In this document: positions 3,461 through 47,824 of the stretch, in pieces
Layout: the number at the start of each line of letters is the position of its first letter
How positions within the stretch are numbered: position 1 is the first letter of the stretch
From: Candidatus Saccharimonadota bacterium
Lineage (GTDB): Bacteria > Patescibacteriota > Saccharimonadia > CAILAD01 > BJGX01
NCBI GenBank assembly: GCA_046350735.1
Contig: JAXLZU010000001.1
Coordinates: 140,530-204,529 of the forward strand
DNA length: 64,000 nt
Direction: 5' to 3'
Made by a program: the position numbers and the translations under genes
The notes under the pieces: model-generated
Told to the model about the DNA's origin: nothing
Databases searched by the model: none
Seen by the model: only the letters and a program-made list of their open reading frames with translations

Positions 3461-4372
3461 ATGAAAAAGATTCTCGTATTCTATAGTTACAAAAAGCACA
3501 AAACCGGCTACTACAAAACACTTTTTTCTCGACTTAATGAGGGCGCAAAAAAACACAACCTCAAACTTTTTCAAGGTTCGGTAAAAGATCTGCGCATAAG
3601 CATCCAGAATAATAAATTGTGTGTTGTAGAGGCTTTAACGAACCAACCACTCAATAATTTTGATGTGGTTTACTTTGAGTTATGGTCGAAAGCTCCACAA
3701 CATGCTCTGGCAGCTGCCATTTTTTTACACAATACTAATACACCATTTATTACTAGCGAGATGACTCAAGTAATGTCGACATCTAAGTTAGGCGAGATGG
3801 CTAAAATGACTTCAGTTAATTTACCTATGCCCGATAGTTATTTTGCTAACAATAAAGACTTACTAGAATTCAGCAAGCAAAAAGATGCCTTTATTTCATT
3901 TCCGATGATAGTAAAGAATACCGAGACTTTCGGTGGCCAAGATAATTACTTAGTAAAAAATAGTGTAGAGCTAGAGAAAATTCTTGCTCAACATCCAAAA
4001 GTTCAATTTGTCTTACAGCAATTTATTCCAAACGATTGTGATTATCGGGTTTTGGTTTTTGGCGGCAAGATACGTGCAATTATGCGACGTACAGCAGTAA
4101 AAGGTAGTCACCTCAATAACACTTCAGCAGGTGGTGAAGGAGAAATGTTACCACTTAATTCGCTCTCTCCAGAAATTTGTACTGATGTGTTGATGGCAGC
4201 AAAGGTAACTAACCGAGAAGAACTGGCTGGCGTGGACGTAGTAATTGATAAAAATACTAACAAGCACTATATACTGGAAGTAAATCAAGCACCTGGTATC
4301 GAATTGGGAGAACATACCGAAGTAAAGATGGACGCATTCTTTTCGTATATAAAGGAGCTGGCAAACCAATGA
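3461..4372 (+). CDS. RimK-like ATP-grasp ligase (alpha-L-glutamate-ligase-like), paralog 1
   Basis: 303 aa. ATP-grasp signature blocks including '[35 protein letters not shown]' (compare RimK '[10 protein letters not shown]') and 'YILEVNQAPG'. Stop overlaps the next start (ATGA). Confidence 0.7.
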   Translation: MKKILVFYSYKKHKTGYYKTLFSRLNEGAKKHNLKLFQGSVKDLRISIQNNKLCVVEALTNQPLNNFDVVYFELWSKAPQHALAAAIFLHNTNTPFITSEMTQVMSTSKLGEMAKMTSVNLPMPDSYFANNKDLLEFSKQKDAFISFPMIVKNTETFGGQDNYLVKNSVELEKILAQHPKVQFVLQQFIPNDCDYRVLVFGGKIRAIMRRTAVKGSHLNNTSAGGEGEMLPLNSLSPEICTDVLMAAKVTNREELAGVDVVIDKNTNKHYILEVNQAPGIELGEHTEVKMDAFFSYIKELANQ

Positions 4373-5754
4373 AAAAACCAAGTATTTTATTTATTTTTGC
4401 TAATCGCGGAAGTGAAACAAGCACTAGATTTGGTGGCTTTACAAAACGATTAAAAAAATATGATGCGTTAGGGTATACAAGCAAAGCTGATGTTGCTGCA
4501 CTCGAAGATTTTCTGTATGTAATTGATAATGGTGAAGCGAAGATTATTGATATGTTTACTGGCAAAGATATTGCGAGCTATAGCTTTGTGTACTTTAAGG
4601 GTTGGGAGAGTATGTCCGATAGAGCCGCAGCAGCAGCCATCTATCTTCAAGTACACGGCATACCTTTTATTGACACAACTGTAGCGCAAAAAGGAAATCC
4701 TAATAAATTAGTTTCTCATTTTCGTTTGTGGCAAAATTTATTGCCGGTTGCCAAAACACTGTATACAAGCTCTACCCATGCAGAGGCTGCGTTAGATAAA
4801 AAGATTCTCCAATATCCTATTGTTATTAAATCTACAGTTGGGCAAAAAGGAAAAGACAACTATTTAGCCAAAACAAAAAAAGAGGCTCTTAAGATTATCA
4901 AGACATATCCAGACACCGATTTTATGATGCAAGAGTTTATTCATAATGAGGGCGACTGGCGTATACAGGTATATGGTAATAAGGCTGCACTTGCCCTAAA
5001 ACGTATAGGTAAAACCGGCTCTCATTTAAACAATACTTCGGCCGGTGGCAAAACAGTTATGACAGAGCTTAGCAACGTTGGCCCATTACTTTTAGAGATG
5101 GCTGAAGATGCCGCCCAGGTAATGGACTTGCAGGTAGCAGGTGTGGATCTTATTGAAGATAAAAAGACAAAAAAAATCTACGTGCTAGAGGTTAATCAGG
5201 GATCGCAAATTATTACTGGGGCACCAGAATTTGTTAAGGCCAATATACCTGCATTCGATAATTTTCTAAAACGCGCAATAAAACGTCGTTTTACCCGTAA
5301 GAATAAATTTTACAATCTGCCAAAAACTATTATCGGACGACATGAGCTTGTAAGTTTACCAGAATTTGGTGTGACCGATATTACTGCTAAGACAGACACT
5401 GGTGCTTATCATAGTGCTCTGCATGCCGAGAATATTATTATCAAGAAAGAACGAGGCAAAGAGGTTTTGCACTTTAGTATACCTGTCTTTGCAAATGGAC
5501 ATCAGAAAACTGCAGTTATGGTTGATTGTACAAGTTTGGATTTTTCTGTAGTAGATATAAAAAACTCTTTCGGAGGATGGCAAAAACGTTATAAGATAAA
5601 TACAGTGGTTGAAATCGGTGGCAAAAAATACGATACTCAACTAACACTAACAAACCGCGAAAGCCAAAAAATCCCAATGTTGCTTGGTAGAAAGTTGCTT
5701 AGAGGAAACTTCTTGGTTAACGTTGAACTCTCACGAAAGGAAGTTGAAATATGA
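4369..5754 (+). CDS. RimK-like ATP-grasp ligase fused to a C-terminal DUF785 retropepsin-like ('putative ATP-dependent zinc protease') domain
   Basis: 461 aa. The N-terminal ~300 aa is paralogous to the previous ORF ('[34 protein letters not shown]', 'YVLEVNQGS'). The C-terminal ~150 aa has '[17 protein letters not shown]' (a D-T-G-A aspartic-protease-like motif), typical of the RimK-associated DUF785 domain. Confidence 0.65.
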
Positions 5755-6656
5755 AAATTGTTATTTTATCACGAGGCCCGTCGAACTATTCAACTAGACG
5801 TTTGGTAGAGGCAGCTATTGCACGTGGTCATAGTGCCAAAGTAGTTAATCATGCTAACTGTTATGTCGATATAGAACGAAATAAACCAGCAATTTTATAT
5901 AATGGCTATTCTTTAGAGAATGTAGATATTGTTATACCGCGTATTGGCCAGTCAATTACTAGCTACGGTTCTGCTGTTGTACGTCAGTTTGAGATGATGC
6001 GTGTTTATACTCCGGTTAGCTCTCTCGCCCTGGTTAGAAGCCGAGATAAGCTACGTAGCATGCAACTTCTTGCTCGCTCGGGAGTTGGTATTCCTAAGAC
6101 AGTGTTTGCACGACAAGCCAAAGAAACCGATGAGCTAATAGAAAAAGCTGGTGGTGCACCGGTGGTAATTAAGCTACTCGAAGGTACACATGGTATTGGT
6201 GTAGTCTTGGCCGAGACTCGTAAAGCGGCTAAGTCGGTTATTGAAGCATTTTATGGACTTGGTGCTAACATTCTTATTCAAGAATTTATTGAAGAAGCGC
6301 ACGGTGCAGATATTCGCGTAATTGTAGTAGGCGAGCGTGTGGTAGGTGCTATGATGCGCAAGGGTCCAGAAGATGAGTTTCGGTCCAACTTGCATCGTGG
6401 TGGCGAATCGTTGCCTGTTGAGCTAACCAAAAAAGAAGCTAATATTGCAATTAAGGCCGCCCGTACTCTTGGCCTGCCAATTGCTGGTGTAGATATCATC
6501 CGCTCTAAACGCGGCCCATTGGTATTAGAAGTTAATTCTAGCCCAGGACTAGGTGGTATCGAGATGCAAACCAAAGAAGATATCGCAGGTGAGATAATCG
6601 ACTACGTGGTTTCTAAGGCTTCAGGCAAACGCCGTAAAGATAGAATCGGTGCTTAA
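5751..6656 (+). CDS. rimK: Ribosomal protein S6 glutamate ligase RimK (canonical ATP-grasp)
   Basis: 301 aa. '[22 protein letters not shown]...', '[18 protein letters not shown]', '[15 protein letters not shown]'. Translationally coupled to the upstream gene (ATGA overlap). Confidence 0.85.
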
Positions 6657-6752
6657 GGATTGATTTTTGTAGAAAAATCAGGTTAAATATATAGGTATTT
6701 CCCTCAATCTTATTAGTTTTACCCGATCAAAAGCGATAATAATTTTGGATGC

Positions 6753-6829
6753 GGGTCCGTAGCTCAGTTGGTTAGAGCACCTGCCTTTTAAGCAGGGTGT
6801 CGTGAGTTCGAGTCTCACCGGACCCACCA
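6753..6829 (+). tRNA. tRNA-Lys (anticodon UUU)
   Basis: Hand-folded cloverleaf. Acceptor gggtccg/cggaccc (7 bp), D-arm 'agctcagttggttagagc', anticodon stem ctgcc/ggcag with loop 'cTTTTaa', T-arm gtgag-ttcgagt-ctcac, and a genomically encoded CCA. Confidence 0.85.
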
Positions 6830-19932: not shown

Positions 19933-19966
19933 CTTGCAAAATCTTAAGATTTGCAGTATCATTTTG
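19933..19966 (+). terminator. Hairpin plus U-tract terminator
   Basis: 'cttgcaaaatctt-aag-atttgcag' stem with one bulge, followed by 'tatcatttt'. Confidence 0.45.
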
Positions 19967-20078
19967 TACTTGTAGGCTCTTTTTGTAGCCCGCACCTTGT
20001 ATGCTTACATACTTTTTCTAAAGAGATTTAGAAAAACTGCAAAATGTGGTCCGCAATTTGGCGGATCTGTTTTGTCAG

Positions 20079-20153
20079 GCGGGTATCGTATAATGATTAT
20101 TATTCCTGCCTTCCAAGCAGGTGATGCGGGTTTAATTCCCGCTACCCGCTCCA
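20079..20153 (+). tRNA. Atypical tRNA-Gly (anticodon UCC): lacks D-loop G18-G19 and the T-loop 'TTC'
   Basis: Acceptor gcgggta/tacccgc (7 bp) plus discriminator and CCA. Anticodon stem cctgc/gcagg with loop 'cTTCCaa'. T-arm gcggg-tttaatt-cccgc. AT-only D-arm 'gtataatgattattat'. Hand fold. Confidence 0.6.
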
Positions 20154-20266
20154 GAGATTATTTACAAATGGGCAGAGATTCTTTAAGAGAAAAAGCATCC
20201 TCTGCCCATTTGTTAATGGTCGTGTTAAGCACTCACTTTATTGGTACAATAGTGTGAGTGACACAG

Positions 20267-20343
<77 letters not shown>

Positions 20344-20344
20344 T

Positions 20345-20422
20345 GGTGAGTGTAGCTCAGTTGGTTAGAGCGTCGGTTTGTGGTACCGAAGGTCGTGGGT
20401 TCGAGACCCATCACTCACCCCA
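20345..20422 (+). tRNA. tRNA-His (anticodon GUG) with an encoded G-1
   Basis: G-1 at 20345. Acceptor gtgagtg/cactcac, anticodon stem tcggt/accga with loop 'tTGTGgt', T-arm gtggg-ttcgaga-cccat, CCA. Confidence 0.85.
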
Positions 20423-20427
20423 TAGTA

Positions 20428-20455
20428 AACGTCCGAGCTTTGCTCGGATTTTTAC
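20428..20455 (+). terminator. Hairpin plus T-run terminator after the tRNA trio
   Basis: 'tccgagc-tttg-ctcgga' followed by 'ttttta'. Confidence 0.55.
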
Positions 20456-22299: not shown

Positions 22300-22911
22300 A
22301 TGCATTCTAAAAAGTCGAAACGTATTAACCATCAATCAAAAAAACGTACTAGTACTTCAGTAATACTGATTATTATTGCTGGTGTGCTTTTGGGTGCAGG
22401 AATTTACATATTACTGCTATTGCTAACACCCAAACTTAGCAGAAATTCAGCCAAAGAATTTCAGAAAACCCAAGAGCAGTTACAAGTATCAAATAAAAAT
22501 TTTCTTACTATTCCAAGTGCAAGTATTGCGGCAGAAATATCAGAAGGCGATGTGAATGTCCTAGATAAAGGTGTAGTCTGGCACCGATTGCCAGCGGTCG
22601 GTAATCCAGAAAAAGGCGGAAATACTATCCTTACTGGTCATAGCTTTGTTTGGGGATATACTCCAAAGCAAATTAAAGAGCAATCAATTTTTTATAATCT
22701 AAATGAAGTTAAGGTGGGCGATAAACTACAGGTGCGCTGGAACAATACAACCTACAATTACGAAGTGAGTGAAACGAAACAGGTTAAGCCGAACCAAATT
22801 GAGATTGAAAAACCCAGCAAAGAGGCCAAATTAACCATATATACCTGTACACTTGGCGGTAGTGCCGATGGTAGAGTAGTGGTAATTGCCAGGCCTACAG
22901 ATACGCACTAG
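22300..22911 (+). CDS. Sortase (class E-like transpeptidase)
   Basis: N-terminal TM anchor. His 'ILTGHS', Cys 'LTIYTCTLGG' (TLxTC) and Arg 'RVVVIARP' catalytic motifs. Confidence 0.85.
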   Translation: MHSKKSKRINHQSKKRTSTSVILIIIAGVLLGAGIYILLLLLTPKLSRNSAKEFQKTQEQLQVSNKNFLTIPSASIAAEISEGDVNVLDKGVVWHRLPAVGNPEKGGNTILTGHSFVWGYTPKQIKEQSIFYNLNEVKVGDKLQVRWNNTTYNYEVSETKQVKPNQIEIEKPSKEAKLTIYTCTLGGSADGRVVVIARPTDTH

Positions 22912-22948: not shown

Positions 22949-24787
22949 ATGAGAAGATTACAAATCTTTGGTTTGATGCTGATAGCAGCAGTATTGTGTG
23001 TATTTTTGTTTAGTAATAAAGCTCATGCCGCCACGTTTACTGTTACTGACAACGGAGATGCTTCTGCCGTAGACCCTTCAGTTAGCTGTGATACTGCCGG
23101 AAGTGTATGTACGCTTCGTTCTGCTATTGAGGCTGCCAATGCCCAGGCTGGGGCTGATAGTATCTCTTTTAATATTCCAGGTTCTGGTGTACATACAATT
23201 ACACCTGGTTCAGCATACCCCAATATTACTGATGAAGTTACAATAGATGGTTCGACCCAACCAGGTGCACAATGCGGCACATTAGTACCAGCAAATCTAC
23301 CACAATCTAGCAATACGCCACACACTCTACTTATTGAAGTAAACGGCTCGAATATTGTGGGTAGCATCTTAACCATTTCTACTGCTTCAGCAAATAACTC
23401 GATAGTAAAAGGCTTGGTACTAAACCATGCAGTATCTGGTAATGCTATTGTAGTAAATGGCGCAAATAACTCAACAATAGAATGCAATTATCTAGGTACC
23501 AACACCAATGGTTCGGCTGCTGCAGGAAATTATGCTGCTGGGGTATCAGTAAGTAATGTACCAACAATAACTATTCAAAATAATTTAATCTCCGGCTCTT
23601 CATCGGGTAATGGCATAGATATTAGTTCTGATGGTAGTGTAGGTTCTGGGTTAATACAAAATAATCTAATCGGAACAGATTCTTCTGGTATTAATGGTCT
23701 TAGCAATAGCTATACGGGTGTAAATATGTTCAACACAAATGGTTGGGGTGTAAAACATAATGTTGTTTCGGGTAATAATACTATTGGAATCAATATTAGT
23801 ACATCTTTTTCTGTGACGGTCACGGGCAATTTTGTAGGAGTAAATTTAAATGGCTCTCCATTAGGAAATAATAGTGACGGTTTGGTATTTTTTAGCTCTT
23901 CTAATTTTGTTATTGGTGGTAATACTGCTACCCTACGCAATGTACTATCTGCAAATCAAGGAGATGGGCTACATATTTATAATAACTGCCAAGGAGATAC
24001 TGCTTCGGCAAACTCTACGATACAAGGTAACTATATAGGAACCACTGCATCTGGTTTGCCTCAGGCGGGGTATGGCAACCAAGGTGCTGGGATAGAAGTG
24101 AACGAATATCAGGGTAGCTGTGGAAGCGTATATCGTCATCAAATAGGGGGTGACGGTTCTGGTGAATCAAATATTATCGCCGGTAACACTAATCAGGGAA
24201 TACTAGTGCATCAAGACAGCAGTCATGACGTATTTAGTATAAGTTCTATAGGTAATAGTATTTATGCCAATGGTCAGTTTGGTATAGACTTAGCTGCTGA
24301 TACAGGAGGTGATGGTATTGCAGATGTTGATCTAGGGCCAAATCTACTCAACAATTTTCTCATGACGTATGGCGCTACTAATGCTAATTATTACATTAAT
24401 CGACCAGTAATTAATTCAACTTCATACACTGGCAATCAGCTAACGGTTAATTACAGTTTGCAAGCTCCTGGTATTACCGATAACTTACCATATATACAGG
24501 CATCTAACCTTGTGGGATTTCGCCTTGACTTCTATCTAAATGATGCCGGACAAGATGGAGCATATTCTGGCTATTCTCAAGGCAAGACACATCTTGGATC
24601 CTTTATAGTTAACGGCCCTGAAAATAATGCAAATCATACCTTTACCAGTCCAGTTACACTTAAGGATGGACAGACAGTTACGGCAACAACTACTGTTTTA
24701 TGGCAGATAATTCCAAACCCAGGCACTAATTGCCAAGGTGATATTTGGGGTGTTGGTGTACCATATACTACAACTTGTAATCAATAA
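22949..24787 (+). CDS. Secreted right-handed beta-helix (pectin-lyase-fold / NosD-like repeat) surface protein, paralog 1
   Basis: Signal peptide 'MRRLQIFGLMLIAAVLCVFLFSNKAHA'. Repeated 'NN.I.GN...GI' beta-helix-type repeats. Paralogous over its full length to 25140..26987. Confidence 0.7.
   Translation: MRRLQIFGLMLIAAVLCVFLFSNKAHAATFTVTDNGDASAVDPSVSCDTAGSVCTLRSAIEAANAQAGADSISFNIPGSGVHTITPGSAYPNITDEVTIDGSTQPGAQCGTLVPANLPQSSNTPHTLLIEVNGSNIVGSILTISTASANNSIVKGLVLNHAVSGNAIVVNGANNSTIECNYLGTNTNGSAAAGNYAAGVSVSNVPTITIQNNLISGSSSGNGIDISSDGSVGSGLIQNNLIGTDSSGINGLSNSYTGVNMFNTNGWGVKHNVVSGNNTIGINISTSFSVTVTGNFVGVNLNGSPLGNNSDGLVFFSSSNFVIGGNTATLRNVLSANQGDGLHIYNNCQGDTASANSTIQGNYIGTTASGLPQAGYGNQGAGIEVNEYQGSCGSVYRHQIGGDGSGESNIIAGNTNQGILVHQDSSHDVFSISSIGNSIYANGQFGIDLAADTGGDGIADVDLGPNLLNNFLMTYGATNANYYINRPVINSTSYTGNQLTVNYSLQAPGITDNLPYIQASNLVGFRLDFYLNDAGQDGAYSGYSQGKTHLGSFIVNGPENNANHTFTSPVTLKDGQTVTATTTVLWQIIPNPGTNCQGDIWGVGVPYTTTCNQ
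23023..23125 (+). repeat. ~103-bp perfect direct repeat shared by the 5' ends of the two beta-helix paralog genes (second copy at 25214-25316)
   Basis: 'ctcatgccgccacgtttactgttactgacaacggagatgcttctgccgtagaccc...cgttctgc' is identical in both copies. Similarity continues beyond this at lower identity. Confidence 0.85.
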
Positions 24788-25139: not shown

Positions 25140-26987
25140 ATGAAAAAATTTTCTACACTCTGCCTTAGCCTAATACTAGCGTTACTCTGCGTACTAATTT
25201 TTTCTACCAAAGCTCATGCCGCCACGTTTACTGTTACTGACAACGGAGATGCTTCTGCCGTAGACCCTTCAGTTAGCTGTGATACTGCCGGAAGTGTATG
25301 TACGCTTCGTTCTGCCATTGAGGCTGCTAATGCCCAGGCTGGGGCAGACACAATAAGCTTTAATATTAGCGGACCTGGAGAACATACAATTAGTCCAGCA
25401 ACTGCTCTGCCTGATATTACTGATGAAGTTACAATAGATGGTTCGACCCAACCAGGAGCGCAGTGCGGTACGTTAGTACCAGTAAATCTACCCGCAACCA
25501 ATACACCCCATGTTCTTAACGTCGTAATTAATGGTAATGCTCTTGGTGCTGCTAATACATTATTATTTGATACCGGTTCAGATAATTCTGTAGTTAAGGG
25601 TCTGGTATTAAATGGAAATACTGGCAATACAGCATTGCAAATTAACTCTACCGTAGGAGGGGTATTAATTGAGTGTAACTACTTAGGTACCAATGCGGCT
25701 GGCGACACAATAGTTACAAATTCTAACCTCAATATAGGTGCCTTTATTAATTCTGGTACCACCACTATTCAAAACAACTTGATTTCTGGATCGAGTGTGG
25801 GAGTGTTGGCTAACTCAGCAAATATAACGAATAACCTTATAGGCACGAATGCTAACGGTACTGGTGCATTAGGTAATAGTGCACAAGGTATATTAATTAA
25901 CTATAGCTCGCAGAATCTGGCAATTTCGCATAATATTATATCTGGCAACAATCTAGGTATTTATATCACATTAAATGGTCCAAATAATAGCATTCATGGA
26001 AATTATATCGGTGTAGGTGTAACAGGGAACCCACTTGGTAATACCACTGGCGGCATTACCGCATTTGGTGCAAATGATTTTTCAATAGGGGGTGTTTCGG
26101 TTACCGACAGAAATATAATTTCTGCTAATGGAGGTGATGGTATACATATATATAGTAATTGTAATACCGGCCAATCTGTTGGTTCGACTACATACGGCAA
26201 CTATATTGGCACAAACACCTCTGGTAATGTTCAAAACGGATTTGGAAATAACGGAGCTGGGATAGAGGTAAACGAATATCAGGGGAGTTGTGAGTCTGTT
26301 TATAATCATGTTATCGGCGGTGATTTAGCTGGTCAACCAAATACTATCGCAGGTAATACTAATCAAGGAGTGCTTGTACATCAGGACCTGGACCATGACG
26401 TATTTAGCGTAGTAATATTAGGTAATAGTATCTATGGTAATGGCCAGTTTGGTATTGATTTGGCATCTGATTCGAGTGGTTTTGATGGAGTAGCTGATAC
26501 CGATCTTGGACCCAATCCACTTAACCAACTCGCAATGACGTATCCAACCACAGTTGCTAATTATTATCTAAATACTGCTACAATAAATTCAGCCACCTAC
26601 ACTGGGAACGAAATTACAGTCAACTATAGTTTTCTAGCAAATCCTGTACAAAATAGTAATGATGGGGTAAGTTTGCTTACTAGTGATTTAGTTGGCTATC
26701 GTTTAGATTTCTACATTAATAATGGAGGGCAAGATGGCGCATATGCTGGCTATGGTCAAGGTAAGATCCACTTGGGCAGTTTTATTGTAAGTGGTGCTGC
26801 CAGTGGGGCTACACATACTTTCACAAGCCCAATACCTCTCACGAATGGTCAAAATATCACTGTAACATCAACAGCACTTTGGACTAATAATCCAGGTCCT
26901 GCTATTACTCCTCGTTCTTGTGACGGTGAAACCCAGCGCGTCGGCAATGGTCCAAAGTATGATTACCAAGGCTCTTGCCCTAACTAG
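25140..26987 (+). CDS. Secreted right-handed beta-helix surface protein, paralog 2
   Basis: Signal peptide. The first ~60 residues after the signal are identical to paralog 1. Later conserved blocks include 'GAGIEVNEYQGSCxSVY.H.IGGD' and 'GNSIYxNGQFGIDLA'. Confidence 0.7.
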   Translation: MKKFSTLCLSLILALLCVLIFSTKAHAATFTVTDNGDASAVDPSVSCDTAGSVCTLRSAIEAANAQAGADTISFNISGPGEHTISPATALPDITDEVTIDGSTQPGAQCGTLVPVNLPATNTPHVLNVVINGNALGAANTLLFDTGSDNSVVKGLVLNGNTGNTALQINSTVGGVLIECNYLGTNAAGDTIVTNSNLNIGAFINSGTTTIQNNLISGSSVGVLANSANITNNLIGTNANGTGALGNSAQGILINYSSQNLAISHNIISGNNLGIYITLNGPNNSIHGNYIGVGVTGNPLGNTTGGITAFGANDFSIGGVSVTDRNIISANGGDGIHIYSNCNTGQSVGSTTYGNYIGTNTSGNVQNGFGNNGAGIEVNEYQGSCESVYNHVIGGDLAGQPNTIAGNTNQGVLVHQDLDHDVFSVVILGNSIYGNGQFGIDLASDSSGFDGVADTDLGPNPLNQLAMTYPTTVANYYLNTATINSATYTGNEITVNYSFLANPVQNSNDGVSLLTSDLVGYRLDFYINNGGQDGAYAGYGQGKIHLGSFIVSGAASGATHTFTSPIPLTNGQNITVTSTALWTNNPGPAITPRSCDGETQRVGNGPKYDYQGSCPN

Positions 26988-28569: not shown

Positions 28570-29859
28570 ATGAAATATAAGACCCATCTAATATCTTTAA
28601 AAAATGGTGCTAGTCTTTTGGCTATTGATGTAGCAGATACTAAGAAGTTTTTATTTAACTCATGTTTTAGGGCTGGCTGGGATTATACAGAACCATCAAA
28701 GCAAGAGCTAGCACATTTATTAGAGCACTTAGCCTTTTGTGGTAATTCAAAATACAAAACTGAGGAAGCACTTTCATATGAGGCAGAAAAATATGGTGTA
28801 AGGTTTAATGCGAATACATCTGATCATCTAATTAGGTATTATTATAATGGTGGTATTAATGAGTATGAACATATTATAGATTTAGCTACTGCACAAATTG
28901 GTAAACCAATTTTTTCAAAAAAAGACATTGATAATCAAAAAAAAGTTGTTGCCGTAGAACTTTCTAGAAAAAAGGATAACGACTCAGATAGATGTGGTTA
29001 CCTGGCAAGTCAAACAATAATGACAAAGTTTTTGTCCATAGATGAAAGAATTGCGTCTCTCAATAATATTAATCGAAAAGATATAGTTAAATATTTTAAT
29101 CAATACCATGTAGCTCAAAATTTATATTTTATTATAGCTGGTGATCTCAGCAGTGGAAGACTATCAAATATCGAATCTATTTTAAATAAGTTTTTAGAAA
29201 CATATAGAACAGGTGAAAAACAAAAATGGAATAAGAAAAATCTAGGGAAATTTAATAAACAGATACTAGTTCAAGATTCTAAGTTAGAAGCAGAACAACA
29301 TTTTGAATTACACTTTACTAAAAAGAATTACAATAAACAATTAGAGGCACCAATGAAGATATTTAATACTCTTTTGGGTGTTGGATTTGGTGCTAGATTA
29401 TTTACAAAAACACGCCAAGAAGGATTGAGTTACGGTGCGCATTCCTATTTTGAAATAGACGAAGATTATAGTTACTTTATTATAAAAGACCGAACTCAAC
29501 CTAAAAATACTACTAGACTATTCGACATTTGCGTAAGTGAAGTTGCAAAAATTTTGGATGGTAAATTTACTAAGGAAGAGTGGGAAAGAGCAAAGGGTTT
29601 TTGTTTAGCTTCTTTAGAAATTGGATTTGAAACACCGGATGATCTTGAATATTGGTTTGACACAGACTTTTTAGAAGATAAGCCACTTGAGACACCAGAT
29701 AGTTTTATTAATAAACTCAAAAAAGTGCAACCAAAAGATATCACAAAACTCAGAAATTCATTTTTTAAAGACTCAGAATGGCTTGTATCATTAGTGGGTA
29801 AGGATATTGGTAAAGATCAAGCAAAATATAAGCAAATTGTTGAAAAGTATTTTGGTTAG
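28570..29859 (+). CDS. M16 (pitrilysin)-family zinc peptidase
   Basis: The inverted zinc-binding motif HxxEH is present in 'LAHLLEHLAFCGNSKY'; 429 aa. Confidence 0.7.
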   Translation: MKYKTHLISLKNGASLLAIDVADTKKFLFNSCFRAGWDYTEPSKQELAHLLEHLAFCGNSKYKTEEALSYEAEKYGVRFNANTSDHLIRYYYNGGINEYEHIIDLATAQIGKPIFSKKDIDNQKKVVAVELSRKKDNDSDRCGYLASQTIMTKFLSIDERIASLNNINRKDIVKYFNQYHVAQNLYFIIAGDLSSGRLSNIESILNKFLETYRTGEKQKWNKKNLGKFNKQILVQDSKLEAEQHFELHFTKKNYNKQLEAPMKIFNTLLGVGFGARLFTKTRQEGLSYGAHSYFEIDEDYSYFIIKDRTQPKNTTRLFDICVSEVAKILDGKFTKEEWERAKGFCLASLEIGFETPDDLEYWFDTDFLEDKPLETPDSFINKLKKVQPKDITKLRNSFFKDSEWLVSLVGKDIGKDQAKYKQIVEKYFG

Positions 29860-31103
29860 TTAATTAATTCAGAGATTTTTATCATTTCTTTTTTGCCTGT
29901 TGCTCGGTCTACAATCTCTACAGAATCTGTTTCTAGTGTCTTTTTAGAAATAATTATTTGGTTAGGAATACCAATAAGGTCGGCGTCACCAAATTTTTCA
30001 CCTGGGCTTACATCAATACGGTCGTCAAAGAGACAGGTATCTACACCAAGTGTAGAGTATATCTTTTCGCCTGCATCTATATTAGCTTTATCTGGCAATG
30101 CAATAATATGGTATTTGTATGGAGAGACATTTTCGGGCCATACCAACCCTTTTGTGTCTGCAAATTTTTCTGCAATAACACCCATTAGGCGAGATATGCC
30201 AATACCATAACTACCCATCCAAACTAATTTGCGCTGATTGTCTTTGTCGGTATAGTTGTAGTCTAATAGCTCAGAATATTTGGTACCCAATGGAAAAATA
30301 TTACCAACCTCACTAGCCTTTAGTTGCTCGAGCTTGCTAAAATCTACACCGAGTTTTTTAGCATCTTCTGGTGTGGTTACTTCTTTATTGTAGGCAATAT
30401 TATTTTTTCGATCTAAATATATAACATCCTCACCGCTTTCTAAAATGGTCTGAAACTCATGTGAATATTCTTTAGTAAAATCGCCACCAGATGCCAGGGT
30501 AATAAATGTGTCGCTTGCAAGACCAAGTTTTTTATATACTGCTAAATATCGTTCTTTGGCTATTTCGTAAAACTCTTTTAGACTTTCTTCTGTTGTATGA
30601 AAACTATACAGATCTTTCATAATAAATTCACGCCCTCGCAATAGACCAGATTTTGCACGGGCTTCATTGCGGAATTTAGTTTGAATTTGGTAGGTAGCAA
30701 AAGGTAGATCTTTATAACTAGCGGCATATTGTTTGGCAATAGGAGTAATAATATCTTCGTGGGTAGGATTAAGAATGTATTCGGCTGTACTTTTTTGCAA
30801 AGCAACTTCGTTAGCAGCCTTAGTACTCATTAGTACATCTACACTATCGTGACGTTTGGTAGCTTGCCATCTCTCTCTTGGAGATAGAGAAGTAAGATGT
30901 AGTTCTGTAGCTATTTTGTTCATTTCTTCTCTTACAATAGACTCAATATTTTGAATTACTCGCCAGCCTAATGGTAAGAATGCATATGCTCCAGCTAGTT
31001 CTTGATAAATAAACCCAGCCCGAATTAATAACTTAGCATTAATTGATTCAGTTTCTGTTGAAACGGTTTTTGAGGTCTTGGTAAAGTTTTGAGAAAATTT
31101 CAT
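29856..31103 (-). CDS. proS: Proline--tRNA ligase (short form without an editing insertion)
   Basis: Class II motif 2 'FRNEARAKSGLLRGREFIMKDLYSF', motif 3 region 'GSYGIGISRLMGVIAE', C-terminal anticodon-binding region; 415 aa. Confidence 0.8.
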   Translation of the reverse strand: MKFSQNFTKTSKTVSTETESINAKLLIRAGFIYQELAGAYAFLPLGWRVIQNIESIVREEMNKIATELHLTSLSPRERWQATKRHDSVDVLMSTKAANEVALQKSTAEYILNPTHEDIITPIAKQYAASYKDLPFATYQIQTKFRNEARAKSGLLRGREFIMKDLYSFHTTEESLKEFYEIAKERYLAVYKKLGLASDTFITLASGGDFTKEYSHEFQTILESGEDVIYLDRKNNIAYNKEVTTPEDAKKLGVDFSKLEQLKASEVGNIFPLGTKYSELLDYNYTDKDNQRKLVWMGSYGIGISRLMGVIAEKFADTKGLVWPENVSPYKYHIIALPDKANIDAGEKIYSTLGVDTCLFDDRIDVSPGEKFGDADLIGIPNQIIISKKTLETDSVEIVDRATGKKEMIKISELIN

Positions 31104-37128: not shown

Positions 37129-37333
37129 AATTATACTTATGTTTATTATAACAATTTCGTTTGTAGAATTGGTTTTATTGCCAAGAGAAAAACCTCCAAG
37201 TACAACTTGAAGGTTTTTCTTGAATATACAGTATCTATAAATTCTATGGTGAACCTAAAGGGGGCTGATTCCGAAACCTTTTATCGTGATCTGGAGGAAT
37301 TGGCAAACAAGCTGGCTACACAGGAGGGTCACA

Positions 37334-37732
37334 ATGTTTAGTTTACTCCGTAGAGCACCAAAAGCCACACTGACAAATACCTCGCTGTACAATGAGCAGT
37401 CCTTCTATAACGCATTTGTACGAGATGTAAAACAAGCGCAATCAACGGTCGTTATAGAAAGCCCCTTCTTGACCGAAAAAAGAGCACTGTATTTTGCAAG
37501 GTTATTCAACAAACTGGCCAGAAAAGGTGTGAGAGTCCGCGTAAATACCCGCAACCCACGCCACCATGATAAATCACTGGAGATACAAGCTTGGAAATCC
37601 ATCAGGATCCTGAGAAATAACGGGGTTAAGGTCTACTTCTTTAGCGATATGCGCCACCGCAAGCTGGCAATCATAGATCAACAAAATTTTATGGGAGAGT
37701 TCGCTCAATATCTTGTCGCAGGTACTCAGTAA
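37334..37732 (+). CDS. PLD-family (HKD motif) Nuc-like domain protein, possibly C-terminally truncated
   Basis: Start chosen at 'MFSLL' after RBS 'aggaggg'. 'MRHRKLAIID' fits HxK(x)4D. The ORF ends about 20 aa after the HKD motif, without the usual GSxN block. Confidence 0.4.
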   Translation: MFSLLRRAPKATLTNTSLYNEQSFYNAFVRDVKQAQSTVVIESPFLTEKRALYFARLFNKLARKGVRVRVNTRNPRHHDKSLEIQAWKSIRILRNNGVKVYFFSDMRHRKLAIIDQQNFMGEFAQYLVAGTQ

Positions 37733-37831
37733 AGAAATTATGCGCCGAACCAACTCAGCCGAACTAGCCCGTCAAATGGCATCGTTCACAAAAATACACA
37801 GTCGGTTTTGGTGATATACTAAAGATCAACT

Positions 37832-38038
37832 ATGAAGGACGATTACAAGATAAACGAAGAAGACATCCAAAAGGTTATAAAGTACCTTGAGTTTCACGAT
37901 CCTAAAAATGCCGACCGTGAATACGCCATTGAATTTATCCAGGCAATGCAGATTGAGGGCAACGAAATAGCTCGAACTGACGAGAAGCTAGCCGAGGCAA
38001 TCCGTGACTTTACTCGCAAGAAAGAAGAGGACAGCTAA
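37832..38038 (+). CDS. Small hypothetical acidic protein
   Basis: 68-aa ORF. No motif recognised. Confidence 0.3.
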   Translation: MKDDYKINEEDIQKVIKYLEFHDPKNADREYAIEFIQAMQIEGNEIARTDEKLAEAIRDFTRKKEEDS

Positions 38039-38256
38039 GCCCTGTTAGGGAAGATATCCGAAGCCTTAACACCTAACGCAGCAAATATCTCATACAGCGT
38101 TTCAACCGAGGCGATAGCTACCCCTTGCTCTAAGGTAGCGTAGTAATTGGTAGTCAGACCAACCTTTTCGGCAACATCTTTTTGGGTGTAATGCCGGGCT
38201 TTACGAGCCTTTTGCAGGTTCGCGCCAATTGTTTTCCTGAGTTTTGCTTCGTTCAT
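38035..38256 (-). CDS. XRE-family helix-turn-helix transcriptional regulator
   Basis: 'KARHYTQKDVAEKVGLTTNYYATLEQG' is the HTH_3 signature; 73 aa. Confidence 0.75.
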   Translation of the reverse strand: MNEAKLRKTIGANLQKARKARHYTQKDVAEKVGLTTNYYATLEQGVAIASVETLYEIFAALGVKASDIFPNRA

Positions 38257-38294
38257 ATGTACTATCCTAATTCTACACCAGACTGTAGCAGATA

Positions 38295-40946
38295 TTGCCA
38301 GTCAAGTCCACCTCTGTTAGTATGAAGTCAGTCAGATCGTTGTACAAGGGAGCCACCATGACAAATGAATCTGGTGGGCAAACAATGGAGCTAGTGGAGT
38401 TCATTCAAACAGCCCTGCCGCTGCTAGGGGTTACGGTAGTCTGCGCTGTCCTGCTCTTCTTCCTTATCTTTACTGTTCTCCGACTTATTAACTACCGCCG
38501 AAAGCTGAAGCAAGAGAGTGTGCTGCTTGAGATAACACCGCCAGCCTTTCAAGATAAAGTACCGATTGCCACCGCCCAACTCTTCTCAGTCTTTCATGGC
38601 TTGCTTAAGCACCGTTCGCTAACCGACGTGCTACTCAGATATGCACCAAGTTTCTCACTCGAGATTGTCTCCTCCAAAGACAAGGGCATTCGCTATCTAG
38701 TCCGTACGGATACAGACAGCGCCGATATCATCCGCCATAACGTCCAAGCCTACATTACTGATGCAAAAGTCACGGAAGTTGACGATTATCTTCACGAGGC
38801 AGCCCACAGCTCAATCCAAGTGTTCAAACAGGCCAACCACTTTGCCCACCCGATTGATACCAGCAGCACCATTAGCGAACATGATCCAGTTGCCTATCTC
38901 ACGAATGCCATGACCAAGCTTGATGACGATGAATTGATGAGCTTCCAGATGGTAGTCACACCAGCTGCTATTGCCGAAGCCGCTAAGATTGATCACAAAA
39001 TACGGCGGGGCTACTGGTCTGGTTCGAGCCTTGAAAAATCCTTTTCAGGTAAAAATATCCTGAAGATTATCTGGGTTATCGTTAAGTTTCCAATCGTCTT
39101 TACCTGGGGTTTACTCTACGCCTTTTTTACTCATGATCTGTATGATTCACCGAAGTCCAGATACGACTCACCCCAGGCCTCACACGTACCGCCCGCTGAA
39201 CAAGAGCTGCTTGATGAAATGCACGTCAAGCTAAGCCAGGATTTGTTTTACGCTGATCTCAGACTACTGGTGCTGGTCGGTAGCAAACAGCACCTCAAAG
39301 AACGCGTCCGAACATTTGCCGGCTCACTCGCAACCTACGCCACACCGAATTGGCAGATGCTAAAACAATCCCGTAACTACCTGTTTCGATATGGCTATAT
39401 ATTCCGGCATTTTATCTTTAGAAACCGTCTGCCGTCACTGATTCACTCCAACTCCAGCATACTCAGCACCGATGAGCTTGGCGCACTCTTTCACTTCCCA
39501 CACACCAGAGCTGCCAGGACGGATAATGTATCTAAATCACTCAGTAAGACCTTGCCAGCACCAACCTCACTGAAAGACAAGAACAACAAACTAAGCATTG
39601 TCCTCGGACAGAACAAGCACCAAGGACAGATTACGCCGTTTGGCCTGACTGAAGCTGAACGAGAGCGTCATATCTTCATGATTGGCGGCACGGGCAATGG
39701 TAAAACCACCATGTTGCAGTATGGCATCGTCCAGGACATTAGAAGCGGTAAAGGCGTAGCCGTGATCGACCCGCATGGCGATATGGCACAAAACTTACTG
39801 CGCTACATACCGAAAAACCGTATAAAAGATGTCATTTACTTCAACCCTGATGACATTGACCATCCGCTGGCGATGAACTTGCTTGAAATACCAAGAGGGC
39901 TGAGAGGCAGCGCACTGGAGCGAGAAAAAGACCGCGTTACTGAATCGGTTATCTCAGTGCTGCGAAAAATATTCTCTGATGACGATACCGGCGGCCATAG
40001 AATTGAATACGTACTCAGAAATGCCATTCAGACAGCGCTAACCACTGAAGACCCAACTATTTTTACTATATTTGAACTGCTCACAAACGACACCTATCGC
40101 AAGAAAATAACCAATGACTTACCGGCTGGAACGCTCAAAAACTTCTGGCAAAACGAGCTTGGTAAAGCCGGAGCCATGCAACGGGTAAAAATGAGCCACG
40201 GTGTAACCAGTAAGATTGGTCGTTTTGAGTTTTCGCCCGCTACCAAGCGAGTGATGGGGCGACCAACTTCCACTTTAGATTTTGACGACCTGCTCAGCTC
40301 TGGCAAAATCCTCATCTGTAATTTCTCCAAAGGTAACTTAGGTGAAGATACCTCAGCTTTATTTGGCACGGCGGTACTGGCTAAATTACAGACCGCCGCG
40401 CTCAGAAGAGCCAGAATCGACCAACGTGAACGCACCCCGTTTTATCTCTATGTTGATGAGTTTCAGAACTTTGCGACTATGCCGTTTGTACAGATGTTAT
40501 CTGAAGCTCGGAAGTACAAACTGTTTCTGACCATGGCTGAGCAGTCGACGACGCAACAGGACGAGCAGCGGTTAGTAAATATCATCTTAGCTAATGTTGG
40601 TACAGTAATCACCTTTAGAACTGGCAGCCCGGTAGATGAGCAATTAGTGCTACCGTTGTTTAGGCCGTATATTGAGCCGGGCGAAATAGCCAACCTGCCA
40701 AGCTTTAATTTTTATGCACGGCTGTCTGCCATACGGTCGCAGGAGCCGTTATCTGGAGAGACGCTGTTGCTCAACGATGATGGTGATCAAGCGATTGCCA
40801 AACAAGCTGTACGGTCTTCTCAGAAATTGTATGCTTACAAATATAAGGAAGAGGCAAAGAAGAGCAAGACAGACAAAGCCAAGCCCGATGAAGCGCAAGA
40901 TGCCAAAAACACCGACTCAAAAGAGGATGAGGCAATAGATGTGTAG
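38295..40946 (+). CDS. Type IV secretion coupling-protein-like ATPase (VirD4/TraG/TraD family) with an acidic C-terminal tail
   Basis: N-terminal TM helices. Walker A 'IGGTGNGKTTM', Walker B-like 'LYVDEFQNFAT'. K/D/E-rich C-terminal tail as in TraD. 883 aa. The exact start is uncertain. Confidence 0.55.
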   Translation: MPVKSTSVSMKSVRSLYKGATMTNESGGQTMELVEFIQTALPLLGVTVVCAVLLFFLIFTVLRLINYRRKLKQESVLLEITPPAFQDKVPIATAQLFSVFHGLLKHRSLTDVLLRYAPSFSLEIVSSKDKGIRYLVRTDTDSADIIRHNVQAYITDAKVTEVDDYLHEAAHSSIQVFKQANHFAHPIDTSSTISEHDPVAYLTNAMTKLDDDELMSFQMVVTPAAIAEAAKIDHKIRRGYWSGSSLEKSFSGKNILKIIWVIVKFPIVFTWGLLYAFFTHDLYDSPKSRYDSPQASHVPPAEQELLDEMHVKLSQDLFYADLRLLVLVGSKQHLKERVRTFAGSLATYATPNWQMLKQSRNYLFRYGYIFRHFIFRNRLPSLIHSNSSILSTDELGALFHFPHTRAARTDNVSKSLSKTLPAPTSLKDKNNKLSIVLGQNKHQGQITPFGLTEAERERHIFMIGGTGNGKTTMLQYGIVQDIRSGKGVAVIDPHGDMAQNLLRYIPKNRIKDVIYFNPDDIDHPLAMNLLEIPRGLRGSALEREKDRVTESVISVLRKIFSDDDTGGHRIEYVLRNAIQTALTTEDPTIFTIFELLTNDTYRKKITNDLPAGTLKNFWQNELGKAGAMQRVKMSHGVTSKIGRFEFSPATKRVMGRPTSTLDFDDLLSSGKILICNFSKGNLGEDTSALFGTAVLAKLQTAALRRARIDQRERTPFYLYVDEFQNFATMPFVQMLSEARKYKLFLTMAEQSTTQQDEQRLVNIILANVGTVITFRTGSPVDEQLVLPLFRPYIEPGEIANLPSFNFYARLSAIRSQEPLSGETLLLNDDGDQAIAKQAVRSSQKLYAYKYKEEAKKSKTDKAKPDEAQDAKNTDSKEDEAIDV

Positions 40947-40975
40947 GGGCCATGGAGCTACTGTAACCTAGCCTC

Positions 40976-41154
40976 TAAGAGTCAGCGAACAGACAACCCG
41001 TTGTTGCGATCGTTGTTGTTGTCCGGGTTCACGTTGTCGGCATTGAAGTTCGCGTTGAACGCGTTGTTGGCATTGTCTGGATTGGCCGAAGCCGACCACA
41101 AGTTGCCGTTGTCACCCTGGTTGTTGAAGCCCTCCCACCAGACACCAGCGAACG
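40976..41154 (-). repeat. DGR template repeat (TR), 179 bp, intergenic
   Basis: Aligns with no gaps to 42569-42747 at a constant offset of +1593. About 30 mismatches, every one at a plus-strand T in this copy, which is an A on the minus (sense) strand. Lies 3' of the RT gene on the same strand. Confidence 0.85.
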
Positions 41155-41360
41155 AAAAGGACCCAAACCAGGCACCCGCTTGTCAATACTGCTCGTTATA
41201 CTACGCCCAGCGTACCAAGCGTAGGGAGGCCTTGACGGCGCTGCCCCTATAGAACTAGCTATGAACAAGTCAAAGCTAGTGAGTATTGTCTCTTAGATAT
41301 GCTTATGTGCCAGGCCGATCATCGGGTAGTGAGCAAAAAGCCGTCAAGCGCCACCCGCCC

Positions 41361-42479
41361 CTAGGCCAGGCAAAGCATAGCTTCTATTGTACCCCCCCGA
41401 ACTTTTACACCACTCTTGATACCATCCAAAAGTTTGCGATGCCTATAATGCTTCACCAACCCCCGATACGATGCCTCGGTTGACTCGAGGCAATCTTGCC
41501 GAGATAATGCGGCTAGTAGGTTACGCTTTAAACGCCTGCCAGGATGTATACGAAATGGATATACCACCGCACCCAGAAATGCAACTCCCTTGCTATATTC
41601 TTGCAGGTGTCGCTTATGAGGATGGAGCGTCAACCCAAGTTGCTGGCCCGCATAGTGCTCGATAGCGGCCAGTGCCCGAACGAGCTCCTCTTTTTTGAGA
41701 GAAACAATATAAAAATCATCAACGTACCGGCCATAATGTGCAAATCCGAGCTCAAGCGTCACAAAACGATCGAGTTGGTCCAGATACATATTGCTTAGTA
41801 GCTGTGAAGTGAGATTGCCGATAGCAATGCCCCGGCCTTTTGGCTGGTGAAACAAACTCTTGCTCGGCGGCAAGCCCTTCCAGGCGCTCCGCGGACAACT
41901 GAACTCCACGTTCTTCAGGGGATCGTTGAAAATAATGACCTTCCATAAAAACTTACACAGTTGGTAGGCGTAGCCTTTATCGGGAAATTGCCTATCCAGC
42001 CCCCACATTGCTCGCACGTATAGTTTTTTGCGATCTAAGCTCATGAAGTACCCCAGAAGATCGAGCTGTAGTATATATGCTGGCCGCGTATAATTACGGC
42101 TTTCTGAACGGATATGATGGTCAAGGCGACGGATACCATACAGCGTACCTTTGCCCTTGCGGCAACTGTAGTTGTCTGCAATGAACCGCGCATCCCACCA
42201 TGTGTTGACTTGGTTGAATAAAAAGTGATGCACCACTCTATCCCGAAAGGCCGCAGCGAAGATCTCTCGTTTGACGGGTTTGTTCACGATAAAGGCTGTT
42301 GATGGCCGTGGTGTATAGGTTCGCGAATGAATTTCTCTGGCCAGTGCTGCAATCTCTGACCGAGCGACTTTGTCAAATGCTTCCACTTGTGGTTTTTTGG
42401 TTTTGCCGCGCCGCGCATCGAGGTAAGCCTTCTGCAGCTCTTTGGCAAGCCAAGCGTTGCGTTTTTGCGATGTGTCCAT
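41361..42479 (-). CDS. Diversity-generating retroelement reverse transcriptase
   Basis: RT motifs including 'YILQLDLLGYFMSL', 'GIAIGNLTSQLLSNMYLDQLD' (the DGR-type [I/L]GxxxSQ motif) and 'RYVDDFYIVS' (YxDD). 372 aa with no maturase or endonuclease domain. Confidence 0.85.
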   Translation of the reverse strand: MDTSQKRNAWLAKELQKAYLDARRGKTKKPQVEAFDKVARSEIAALAREIHSRTYTPRPSTAFIVNKPVKREIFAAAFRDRVVHHFLFNQVNTWWDARFIADNYSCRKGKGTLYGIRRLDHHIRSESRNYTRPAYILQLDLLGYFMSLDRKKLYVRAMWGLDRQFPDKGYAYQLCKFLWKVIIFNDPLKNVEFSCPRSAWKGLPPSKSLFHQPKGRGIAIGNLTSQLLSNMYLDQLDRFVTLELGFAHYGRYVDDFYIVSLKKEELVRALAAIEHYAGQQLGLTLHPHKRHLQEYSKGVAFLGAVVYPFRIHPGRRLKRNLLAALSRQDCLESTEASYRGLVKHYRHRKLLDGIKSGVKVRGGTIEAMLCLA

Positions 42480-42562
42480 AGGAGGTAATACACCCCAGTC
42501 GACTCAGCGGGCTCAGGCCTGGTCAGGCCCTCGCGCCTGCTTCGCTTTGTGGGGTGTATTGC

Positions 42563-43912: not shown

Positions 43913-44085
43913 GGTATTCTTTTTTCCTTTCTTTGGTTATAGCTGCTTTGTTATGGTTGGTTGATGAATGAATAGACTGCGGATAAAACCAAAACTAGCC
44001 GCTCAGGATAGAGACGGCTGTTGAGGGAGATAGGCTGAAGGTGTGACGTTGAACGGTAGCAGTGCGGTTAGCGCATGCGCTAACC

Positions 44086-44104
44086 GAGAGAGAGAGAGAG
44101 AGAG
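44086..44104. repeat. (GA)n dinucleotide tract (~9.5 units) flanked by two palindromes, upstream of the DGR target gene
   Basis: 'gagagagagagagagagag'. On its left is the 20-bp perfect palindrome 'ggttagcgcatgcgctaacc' (44066-44085). On its right is the hairpin 'tagattgcgc-taac-gcgcaatcta' (44105-44128). Confidence 0.8.
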
Positions 44105-44581
44105 TAGATTGCGCTAACGCGCAATCTAAACCACTGATAGTGCCGGTTTGATTATTCCCCTCTAATGTATACGTAGTTTTCATAGTTTTTGCTTCCACTC
44201 ACGGTAGTTTTGTGCATAGTATATGTGAGTACTATGCATATGCACAAAACTGCTTACGTATATTTTATCATACATGCTTATTGATACAAACGGTATCTTT
44301 TACTATCGATAAAAATAAGAAAAGGCGCCTCAGGTTCAATACAGTACCGTATACGCCTTTTACGGGCTGTGTTATAGGGTAGCTCATTATATTGCTAAGG
44401 CTTTTTGAGCCAGCTAAATTCAATATTGACATAAACACTATTGTTTGATAGTATATTTATAAGACCTTCGGCAAGTGGTTTTTAGGCCACCCCAGCGGAA
44501 GGCCTGAGTGAAAAGCTTCGCGTAGTTTATACACTACACTTGCGAGGTTTTTCTTTTTGTTTGAAATCTGAAAGTCTGGAT

Positions 44582-44992
44582 TTAGTGTGGCGGGAACACG
44601 GACACGAAGTACTTGTTATCTGTCCTGTTGTCTTCTTTAACTTGTACATAAAACAAATCGCCGTCTTTGGTCTGGCCTGCGAAACGATGCACCAGTTCAT
44701 TACGCCCGTTCGGGTTCGGCTTTGTGACAGGCTCTGCTGTACTATGGCGAAGCAGCTCAATGGCAGCTGCGTAGTATTTGATACGTCGCTTGCGATCATA
44801 CTGTGGTTTTTGATGCAGGTGATCCCAGAAAAGGTTGATGAATATCTTGCTATTTTTGAAATACGCACTTCGTATGTAGGGGTTACGCTTTGAACGAGCA
44901 GCAATGGAGTTATGCAATTTGCGAGCCTTGCGCTCCACGTCAGAGTACGAACGACCAGTGTATTTAACTGCTTTTGTTCGGTAGGCTTTCAT
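44582..44992 (-). CDS. Hypothetical basic protein
   Basis: 136-aa ORF whose start overlaps the upstream gene's stop. No motif recognised. Confidence 0.35.
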   Translation of the reverse strand: MKAYRTKAVKYTGRSYSDVERKARKLHNSIAARSKRNPYIRSAYFKNSKIFINLFWDHLHQKPQYDRKRRIKYYAAAIELLRHSTAEPVTKPNPNGRNELVHRFAGQTKDGDLFYVQVKEDNRTDNKYFVSVFPPH

Positions 44993-45768: not shown

Positions 45769-45965
45769 GTTTAGTATTACTCCCTATACGTAGTATAGGT
45801 AATTATATAACAAATGATTATAAATATAACAGATATAAATGCTGTATATAGATAGCCTAACGATGAGATATCCACAGTTTTACTAAATAAGCCGTGTTTT
45901 ATGTTTGAACTATCTCTATTATCCATAGTATACTATAGATATAATCAATAGTTTCCGAGGGTATT

Positions 45966-47790: not shown

Positions 47791-47824
47791 AAACCTGGTG
47801 TCCTAACCGCTAGACGATGGGGCC
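47750..47824 (-). tRNA. tRNA-Glu (anticodon UUC)
   Basis: Reverse complement folds: acceptor ggcccca/tggggtc (one G-U pair), D-arm 'gtctagcggttaggac', anticodon stem ccagg/cctgg with loop 'tTTTCat', T-arm agggg-ttcgatt-cccct, CCA. Confidence 0.8.

Follow-up and report, generated by a model that had tools for sequence, protein, structure and literature searches.

The G19:C56 base pair is nearly universal among tRNAs and counts among their most conserved tertiary contacts. The elbow surface that it caps is used for stacking by RNase P and by the L1 stalk of the ribosome, and T-box RNAs likewise stack on it. Structurally, the elbow stack runs C61-A58-G18-R57-(G19:C56), with G19:C56 on its outer side (PMC7912444), and an engineered pre-tRNA-Gly in which both partners were exchanged (G19A/C56U) showed wild-type cleavage kinetics with protein-only RNase P (PMC4797305). 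For natural A19-U56 pairs, our literature search returned only engineered mutants and mitochondrial cases. In the searchable literature, which is itself a part of the published total, we found nothing on the tRNA anatomy of Saccharibacteria and no published description of the A19:U56 trait reported here for these bacteria, although the tolerability of such a pair was already known experimentally.

Among glycine tRNAs with deviant loops, the closest described species are the non-proteogenic tRNA-Gly of staphylococci, which are extra paralogues that accompany the proteogenic UCC isoacceptor and have been reported as confined to staphylococci (PMC7826273). Their T-loop has UGC or UGU where UUC is usual and is therefore devoid of U55, and hence of a pseudouridine at that position, and their T-stem is of a composition that is weak for EF-Tu (A49-U65, U50-A64 and A51-U63) (PMC7826273). 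Here we compare with these systems a tRNA-Gly(UCC) gene located in a 64-kb stretch of Saccharibacteria DNA, hereafter the window, for which an initial annotation had proposed a similar departure from the canonical elbow.

Anatomy of the tRNA-Gly(UCC) gene

Positions 20079-20153 (+) of the window hold a 75-nt tRNA-Gly(UCC) gene with an encoded CCA, as called by ARAGORN, which finds eight tRNA genes in the window, and as seen by direct reading. The gene gives a full-length match to the Rfam tRNA family RF00005 (60.4 bits, E=4.7e-12, model positions 1-71; gathering score 29), so the identification made in the initial annotation was borne out. The low or unusual score anticipated there was obtained only in part: the gene has the lowest score of the six tRNAs at 20.0-22.0 kb (the others score 62.5-75.8), but ARAGORN calls it and its score is about twice the family threshold. 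An 86-aa open reading frame that overlaps the gene (19997-20257) was taken as spurious.

Direct reading agreed with the 7-bp acceptor stem, GC-rich T-stem (GCGGG/CCCGC), anticodon loop (CUUCCAA, with the anticodon at 20112-20114, +), discriminator (U73) and CCA that had been described for the molecule. The identity set recognized by glycyl-tRNA synthetase (GlyRS), as listed in PMC7826273, is intact (G1-C72, C2-G71, (G3-C70), U73, C35 and C36, within the sequence GCGGGUA...UACCCGC-U-CCA). The D-stem contains a U13-U22 mismatch and a G10-U25 wobble, and the D-arm is the weakest in its set.

Rfam and ungapped E. coli alignments assign the D-loop as A14 A15 U16 G18 A19 U20 U20a A21 and the T-loop UUUAAUU (20131-20137, +) as U54 U55 U56 A57 A58 U59 U60, which places G18 at 20095, A19 at 20096 and U56 at 20133 (+). 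The elbow nucleotides G18, U54, U55, A57 and A58 and the G53-C61 pair are kept, and the altered ones are G19, which is A (20096), and C56, which is U (20133); A19 and U56 can form a Watson-Crick pair. At position 57 the exchange of G for A is a harmless purine change that is also found in the E. coli copy. The earlier reading that both G18-G19 and T54-Psi55-C56 are missing therefore stands for G19 and C56 and fails for G18, U54 and U55, all of which are present. Likewise, the joint change of elbow partners that it had noted is real for 19:56, where G:C has become A:U, and does not extend to any further pair, and the D-arm described as entirely A/T is indeed A/U-rich but not peculiar, since that of E. 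coli tRNA-Gly(UCC) is the same. The elbow deviation is thus compensated, and the gene is still within the bacterial elongator tRNA family.

tRNA cluster and upstream leader

The tRNA-Gly(UCC) gene opens a Gly(UCC)-Arg(UCU)-His(GUG) cluster, in which tRNA-Arg(UCU) (20267..20343, +) is followed after 2 nt by tRNA-His(GUG) (20346..20422, +), and a terminator-like hairpin followed by TTTTT, found by consensus scan (20431..20449, +), closes the cluster. Both neighbours have a canonical elbow, as had been stated previously, and the same is true more widely: all seven other tRNAs of the window carry GG and TTCGA loops. A second cluster, Arg(UCG)-Lys(CUU)-Pro(UGG), lies 1.2 kb away on the opposite strand, and both the Gly-Arg-His order and the adjoining second cluster recur in related loci, where tRNA-Gly(UCC) is without exception part of this arrangement. 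The genes 5′ of the cluster encode an LTD-domain protein, TsaE, TsaB, RNase Y, HU, MgtE and a 353-aa protein without an assigned family, whereas a sortase gene and two large secreted paralogues lie 3′ of it. The RNase Y of the window shows 100% identity to a protein that carries the name 'Candidatus Saccharibacteria bacterium', and an identical locus is present on one Logan contig. In the spacer 3′ of tRNA-Gly, direct reading revealed a perfect 13-bp hairpin, CAAATGGGCAGAG...CTCTGCCCATTTG (20165..20212, +), that is identical in locus L042 and not conserved in L065.

Upstream of tRNA-Gly, a consensus scan identified a sigma-70-like element (TTGCAA-17 nt-TATCAT, 19934..19962, +), which, judged by its sequence, may serve as the promoter; its -10 box and the following sequence are conserved in L042, L065 and 13 related loci. 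Between this candidate promoter and position +1 of the tRNA, conservation and folding delineate a strongly structured 5′ leader that is roughly 110 nt long (19963..20078, +). The leader is nearly invariant across the window, L042 and L065, in which the adjacent protein is only 67-70% identical, and folds into three to four hairpins, with z-scores of -4.5 to -6.6 in five of eight leaders. Its final long hairpin (about 20037-20078) abuts the 5′ end of tRNA-Gly and shows compensatory changes between the window and L065. A leader motif, UUGUAGGC-loop-GCC..G[C/U]ACCUU, occurs 54-91 nt upstream of tRNA-Gly(UCC) in 13 loci (the window, L042, L065, L040, L057, L072, L044, L049, L052, L071, L080, L075 and L233) and before no other tRNA; the leader itself is present in at least 13 related species. 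It matched no Rfam family, and when the leader sequences were aligned and folded with MAFFT and RNAalifold, the alignment was poor and yielded no consensus that could be used. Two readings of the leader were dropped: a boxA-like element at GGCUCUUU, because the loop sequence varies in L075 and L233, and pairing of the leader GCACCU with AGGUG of the tRNA, because no covariation was seen.

Conservation in Saccharibacteria-type genomes

We scanned one genome per GTDB species with a pattern that forced a tRNA-Gly(UCC) to carry both A19 and U56 and obtained 56 matches. Among these, 28 loci in 27 assemblies (GTDB species; mostly Saccharibacteria/Patescibacteria metagenome-assembled genomes (MAGs)) have the variant on the same backbone as the window gene; their labels include Saccharibacteria or Saccharimonadia (19), 'Patescibacteria group' (3), Berkelbacteria (1, L045, which carries the A19/U56 variant) and Gammaproteobacteria (1, probably misbinned). 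The other matches comprised four hemoplasmas, one Nitrososphaerales MAG and a remainder that consisted mostly of chance matches within coding sequence. In the contig binned as a Nitrososphaerales archaeon (L037, 671-744, +), the A19/U56 tRNA-Gly(UCC) is bacterial-looking (U73, CCA) and adjoins a tRNA-Gly(GCC); the contig may be misbinned or carry a viral insert.

A second sample was blind to the tRNA and consisted of loci reached via RNase Y homologues at 68-71% identity. A19/U56 was found in all four tRNA-Gly(UCC) loci of this sample (L096/L097, L098, L233 and L234; three species), one of which, L096/L097, is the complete 916-kb genome CP064998.1; the RNase Y neighbourhoods L099, L100, L231, L232 and L235 had no tRNA-Gly nearby. 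The D-loops of the tRNA-blind loci include AACGA and AAAGA. Because the genome-scan pattern demanded the D-loop AATGA, Saccharibacteria with these D-loops went unseen in it, and the 27 assemblies are a lower bound.

The sample comprises 33 genes (32 loci and the window), or 35 when L002 and L096 are included. Across all Saccharibacteria-type loci, the T-loop triplet is TTT in 35/35 tRNA-Gly(UCC) genes and TTC in each of the 114 other tRNAs, so the change is specific to the Gly(UCC) isoacceptor. With every sampled Saccharibacteria-type tRNA-Gly(UCC) sharing A19/U56, tRNA-blind loci included, the conservation that the initial annotation had proposed to look for in related genomes was found, and its suggestion of a lineage-specific structural variant is supported. 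Within this set, identity to the window falls from 96% to 48% for MgtE and down to about 64-70% for RNase Y, which indicates that the A19/U56 state is old. Two Patescibacteria outgroups from outside the Saccharibacteria, L229 and L230, keep G19:C56, the latter being fully canonical; the trait is thus not universal in the Patescibacteria radiation. L229, a relative of L045, has its tRNA-Gly(UCC) in an equivalent cluster (6628-6701, -) and retains G18, G19 and C56 in a molecule whose T-loop, UCCGACU, has C55 instead of the nearly universal U/Psi. A C50-A64 mismatch is present in the tRNA-Gly(UCC) of both L229 and L049.

No second tRNA-Gly(UCC) was found in the 64-kb window or in the Saccharibacteria-type loci (8-21 kb). 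A metagenome-wide scan for the G19 version of the same backbone returned eight matches, none of them Saccharibacteria-like, and no sister-state orthologues; the matches belong to other lineages, as judged by a discriminator A, the absence of CCA, a Cys-Gly cluster or an array of phage type.

Covariation at positions 19 and 56

The 33 sampled Saccharibacteria-type genes represent 14 distinct sequences, across which compensatory changes occur in the T-stem and the anticodon stem; the T-stem variants are GCGGG/CCCGC, GAGGG/CCCUC, GUGGG/CCCAC, GCGAG/CUCGC and ACGGG/CCCGU. In an ungapped alignment of 33 sequences that included canonical comparators and whose rows were hand-chosen (alignment A2), 95.3% of cells were paired and double changes were seen in 20 of 22 pairs; none of 500 shuffles matched the observed values, and slid controls did not come close. 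At 19:56 this alignment contained A:U 17 times, G:C 13 times, G:U twice and one unpaired combination, a distribution that is illustrative given the hand-chosen rows.

For phages, four scans of viral contigs were performed, one per 19/56 combination, with intact acceptor and T stems required. Counted as distinct tRNA-Gly(UCC) sequences, the combinations were G/C in at least 99, A/U in 15, G/U in 3 and A/C in 1 (Fisher's exact p=3.5e-15), a statistic that is conservative in that G/C is a minimum and inflated by kinship among phage tRNAs, but clear in its direction. Joint replacement of both partners greatly outnumbers replacement of either one alone, which is the pattern that a required base pair would produce.

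Interpretation of the A19:U56 pair

We regard the window gene as encoding the regular tRNA-Gly(UCC) of translation, in which the elbow pair has undergone a compensated change, and put the probability of this reading at about 0.85. Given its intact identity elements, its T-stem and its place in a tRNA operon, we infer that the tRNA is a substrate of GlyRS, a ligand of EF-Tu and a participant in ribosomal translation. It would read GGA and GGG codons, which together make up 260 of the 911 glycine codons (29%) in 30 window genes, so that a UCC decoder is needed. In this lineage A19:U56 has taken the place of G19:C56, and the neighbouring G18-U55 and U54-A58 contacts are kept. Since A:U is isosteric with G:C, the elbow stack and its flat outer surface should be kept, and the L-shape with its stacking surface would be retained with one hydrogen bond fewer. 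The swap would then represent compensated drift, probably by way of a G19:U56 wobble intermediate, a state that is still present in a few phage genes.

The restriction of the change to one isoacceptor, together with its recurrence in hemoplasmas and phages, could nevertheless reflect selection rather than neutral compensated drift. On this less favoured account, which we consider unlikely, the tRNA would continue to serve translation, and an elbow-reading partner would recognize tRNA-Gly(UCC) differently on account of the altered elbow. Candidates for this partner would be a nuclease or toxin that acts on tRNA, an enzyme of tRNA modification such as TruB or TrmA, RNase P, or a regulator; such recognition would account both for fixation in Saccharibacteria and for the renewed origin of the pair in hemoplasmas and phages. 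The confinement of the swap to Gly(UCC) (35/35, against 0/114 other tRNAs of the Saccharibacteria-type loci), its independent recurrence on different backbones in hemoplasmas and many phage tRNA arrays, and the conserved structured leader upstream, which is specific to tRNA-Gly(UCC), are consistent with this account, as is the absence of TruB from hemoplasmas (PMC4014445). However, the scans outside Saccharibacteria targeted Gly(UCC) only, so the special status of this isoacceptor there is partly a sampling artefact, and a TTT T-loop is also carried by about 3% of the other phage tRNAs. The isostericity of A:U and the wild-type-like behaviour of the engineered double mutant with one elbow-reading enzyme also argue against an effect on recognition. 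We therefore doubt that A19:U56 is a selected recoding that, by altering the sole base-specific face at the corner of the elbow, renders tRNA-Gly(UCC) invisible to, or specifically recognizable by, an elbow-reading factor. If it were, the factor might be a nuclease or defence system directed against tRNA-Gly, an enzyme of tRNA modification or a regulator, and the structured leader could belong to the same specialized handling.

The initial annotation had further raised the possibility of a dedicated non-ribosomal glycine donor for the peptidoglycan cross-bridge (Fem/FmhB type) that avoids EF-Tu. In favour of this, the window molecule is a UCC-reading type of glycine tRNA whose D-loop/T-loop contact departs from the norm, and S. 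aureus FmhB finds its identity determinants in the D arm and the T arm (PMC7826273); moreover, the translated sequence of the window includes a sortase (gene at 22300-22911), so that these Saccharibacteria presumably have a Gram-positive-type wall. Nonetheless, both U54 and U55 are present in the window tRNA, which has a strong T-stem for EF-Tu, identical to that of E. coli, and its gene is located in a housekeeping tRNA cluster with no canonical twin found in the window, the related loci or the metagenome scan. No match to the FemAB Pfam family was found among the 30 window open reading frames scanned or in the precomputed Pfam annotations for the related loci, and the staphylococcal non-proteogenic lineage is reported to be confined to staphylococci. 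The same swap, in addition, is found in hemoplasmas, which are Mollicutes without a cell wall or peptidoglycan, so the variant tRNA must serve translation there and cannot serve a wall. A Fem-type role that escapes EF-Tu is thus unsupported, and we consider it highly improbable for the window tRNA. The null hypothesis of a decaying pseudogene, for which the lowest Rfam score of the six cluster tRNAs, the U13-U22 mismatch and the G10-U25 wobble could be cited, is refuted by a score twice the threshold, the presence of the same U13-U22 mismatch in E. coli tRNA-Gly(UCC), the intact CCA, discriminator and GlyRS identity elements, and compensatory stem changes and conservation across distant genomes whose MgtE is only 48-96% identical.

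Read as an ordinary translational tRNA with a compensated pair, the gene reveals no new function, and the tempting analogy to the staphylococcal cell-wall tRNAs is removed. The lineage-wide presence of A19:U56 in exactly one isoacceptor amounts to a clean natural experiment, of which the hemoplasmas and phages provide independent repeats, and these natural cases indicate that pairing geometry at 19:56 is required and G:C identity is not. The pair also offers a ready marker for Saccharibacteria-type tRNA-Gly genes, and annotators should not take this deviation as a sign of a pseudogene.

Other features of the window

A higher-GC island (about 37200-47830; up to 52% GC versus about 40% elsewhere) lies next to tRNA-Glu (47750-47824, -) and encodes a type IV secretion system (T4SS) coupling-protein-like gene (38295-40946), a Replic_Relax protein (44989-45768) and a large serine recombinase (46081-47790), the end of which overlaps the 3′ end of tRNA-Glu. 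The island has the appearance of an integrative mobile element sited at tRNA-Glu, and no att repeat was detected. Inside the island is a diversity-generating retroelement (40976-43912, -) composed of a 179-nt template repeat (40976-41154), a reverse transcriptase (41361-42479) and a target gene (42563-43912) that encodes a Fib_succ_major domain and whose 3′ end contains the variable repeat (42569-42747). All 30 mismatches between the template and variable repeats fall at template adenines (22 A to G and 8 A to T).

A class II synthetase gene (29856-31103, -) was considered as a GlyRS and rejected, as it encodes a prolyl-tRNA synthetase (ProRS) without the editing domain: the 415-aa protein matches both ends of bacterial ProRS models, is missing the central editing insertion, and scores below the cut-off of the equivalog NF006625 and above that of TIGR00409. 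Elsewhere in the window, three RimK-like ATP-grasp genes follow one another (3461-6656, +), the second of which is a fusion with a putative zinc-protease domain, with tRNA-Lys(UUU) (6753-6829) just downstream of the trio. The two paralogous secreted proteins directly 3′ of the sortase gene (22949-24787 and 25140-26987, +; about 612 aa) are nearly identical over their initial 110 or so residues and have diverged in their repeat-rich cores; homologues of these proteins also adjoin a sortase in L074 and L075.

Comparison with known glycine tRNAs

The E. coli comparator, a tRNA-Gly(UCC) of the glyT type (NZ_CP025840.1, 4516841-4516915; locus L001), is 88% identical to the window gene over 75 nt without gaps. 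The two molecules have in common the acceptor stem, the A/U-rich D-arm with its U13-U22 mismatch, the 4-nt variable loop UGAU, the T-stem GCGGG/CCCGC, the anticodon loop CUUCCAA, A57, U73 and CCA. At the elbow, E. coli has G19 and C56 where the window has A19 and U56; otherwise the two differ by G10-C25 in E. coli versus G10-U25 in the window, at positions 20 and 26, and at three paired sites in the anticodon stem.

The same elbow pair is found in phages and hemoplasmas. Among IMG/VR phage tRNA-Gly(UCC), A19:U56 occurs in 15 distinct, well-formed tRNAs that are located within tRNA arrays and have diverse backbones; phage tRNAs also show many further T-loop deviations. The hemoplasmas with an A19/U56 tRNA-Gly(UCC) are M. 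haemofelis, M. haemocanis, Ca. M. haematohominis and Ca. M. haematobovis. Like the window gene, theirs keep G18, U54, U55 and A58 and are part of a housekeeping tRNA operon, here in the order Tyr-Gln-Lys-Leu-Gly, in a reduced genome; M. haemofelis and M. haemocanis have just 31 tRNAs (PMC3196708, PMC3496576). The hemoplasma backbone, however, is different (74 nt, with the D-arm AGUUCAAUGAUAGAAC), which points to an independent origin of A19/U56.

The staphylococcal species NP1-NP3 and S. epidermidis Ia/Ib resemble the window tRNA in having a UCC anticodon, intact GlyRS elements and non-canonical D- and T-loops. The resemblance does not extend to the features that set the non-proteogenic tRNAs apart: these are devoid of U55, whereas the window T-loop UUUAAUU has both U54 and U55, and their T-stem is weak, whereas that of the window tRNA (G49-C65, C50-G64 and G51-C63) equals the E. 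coli stem and shares C50-G64 and G51-C63 with the staphylococcal proteogenic isoacceptors. Unlike in the staphylococcal non-proteogenic tRNAs, the change in the window tRNA is confined to the 19:56 pair, and it is isosteric.
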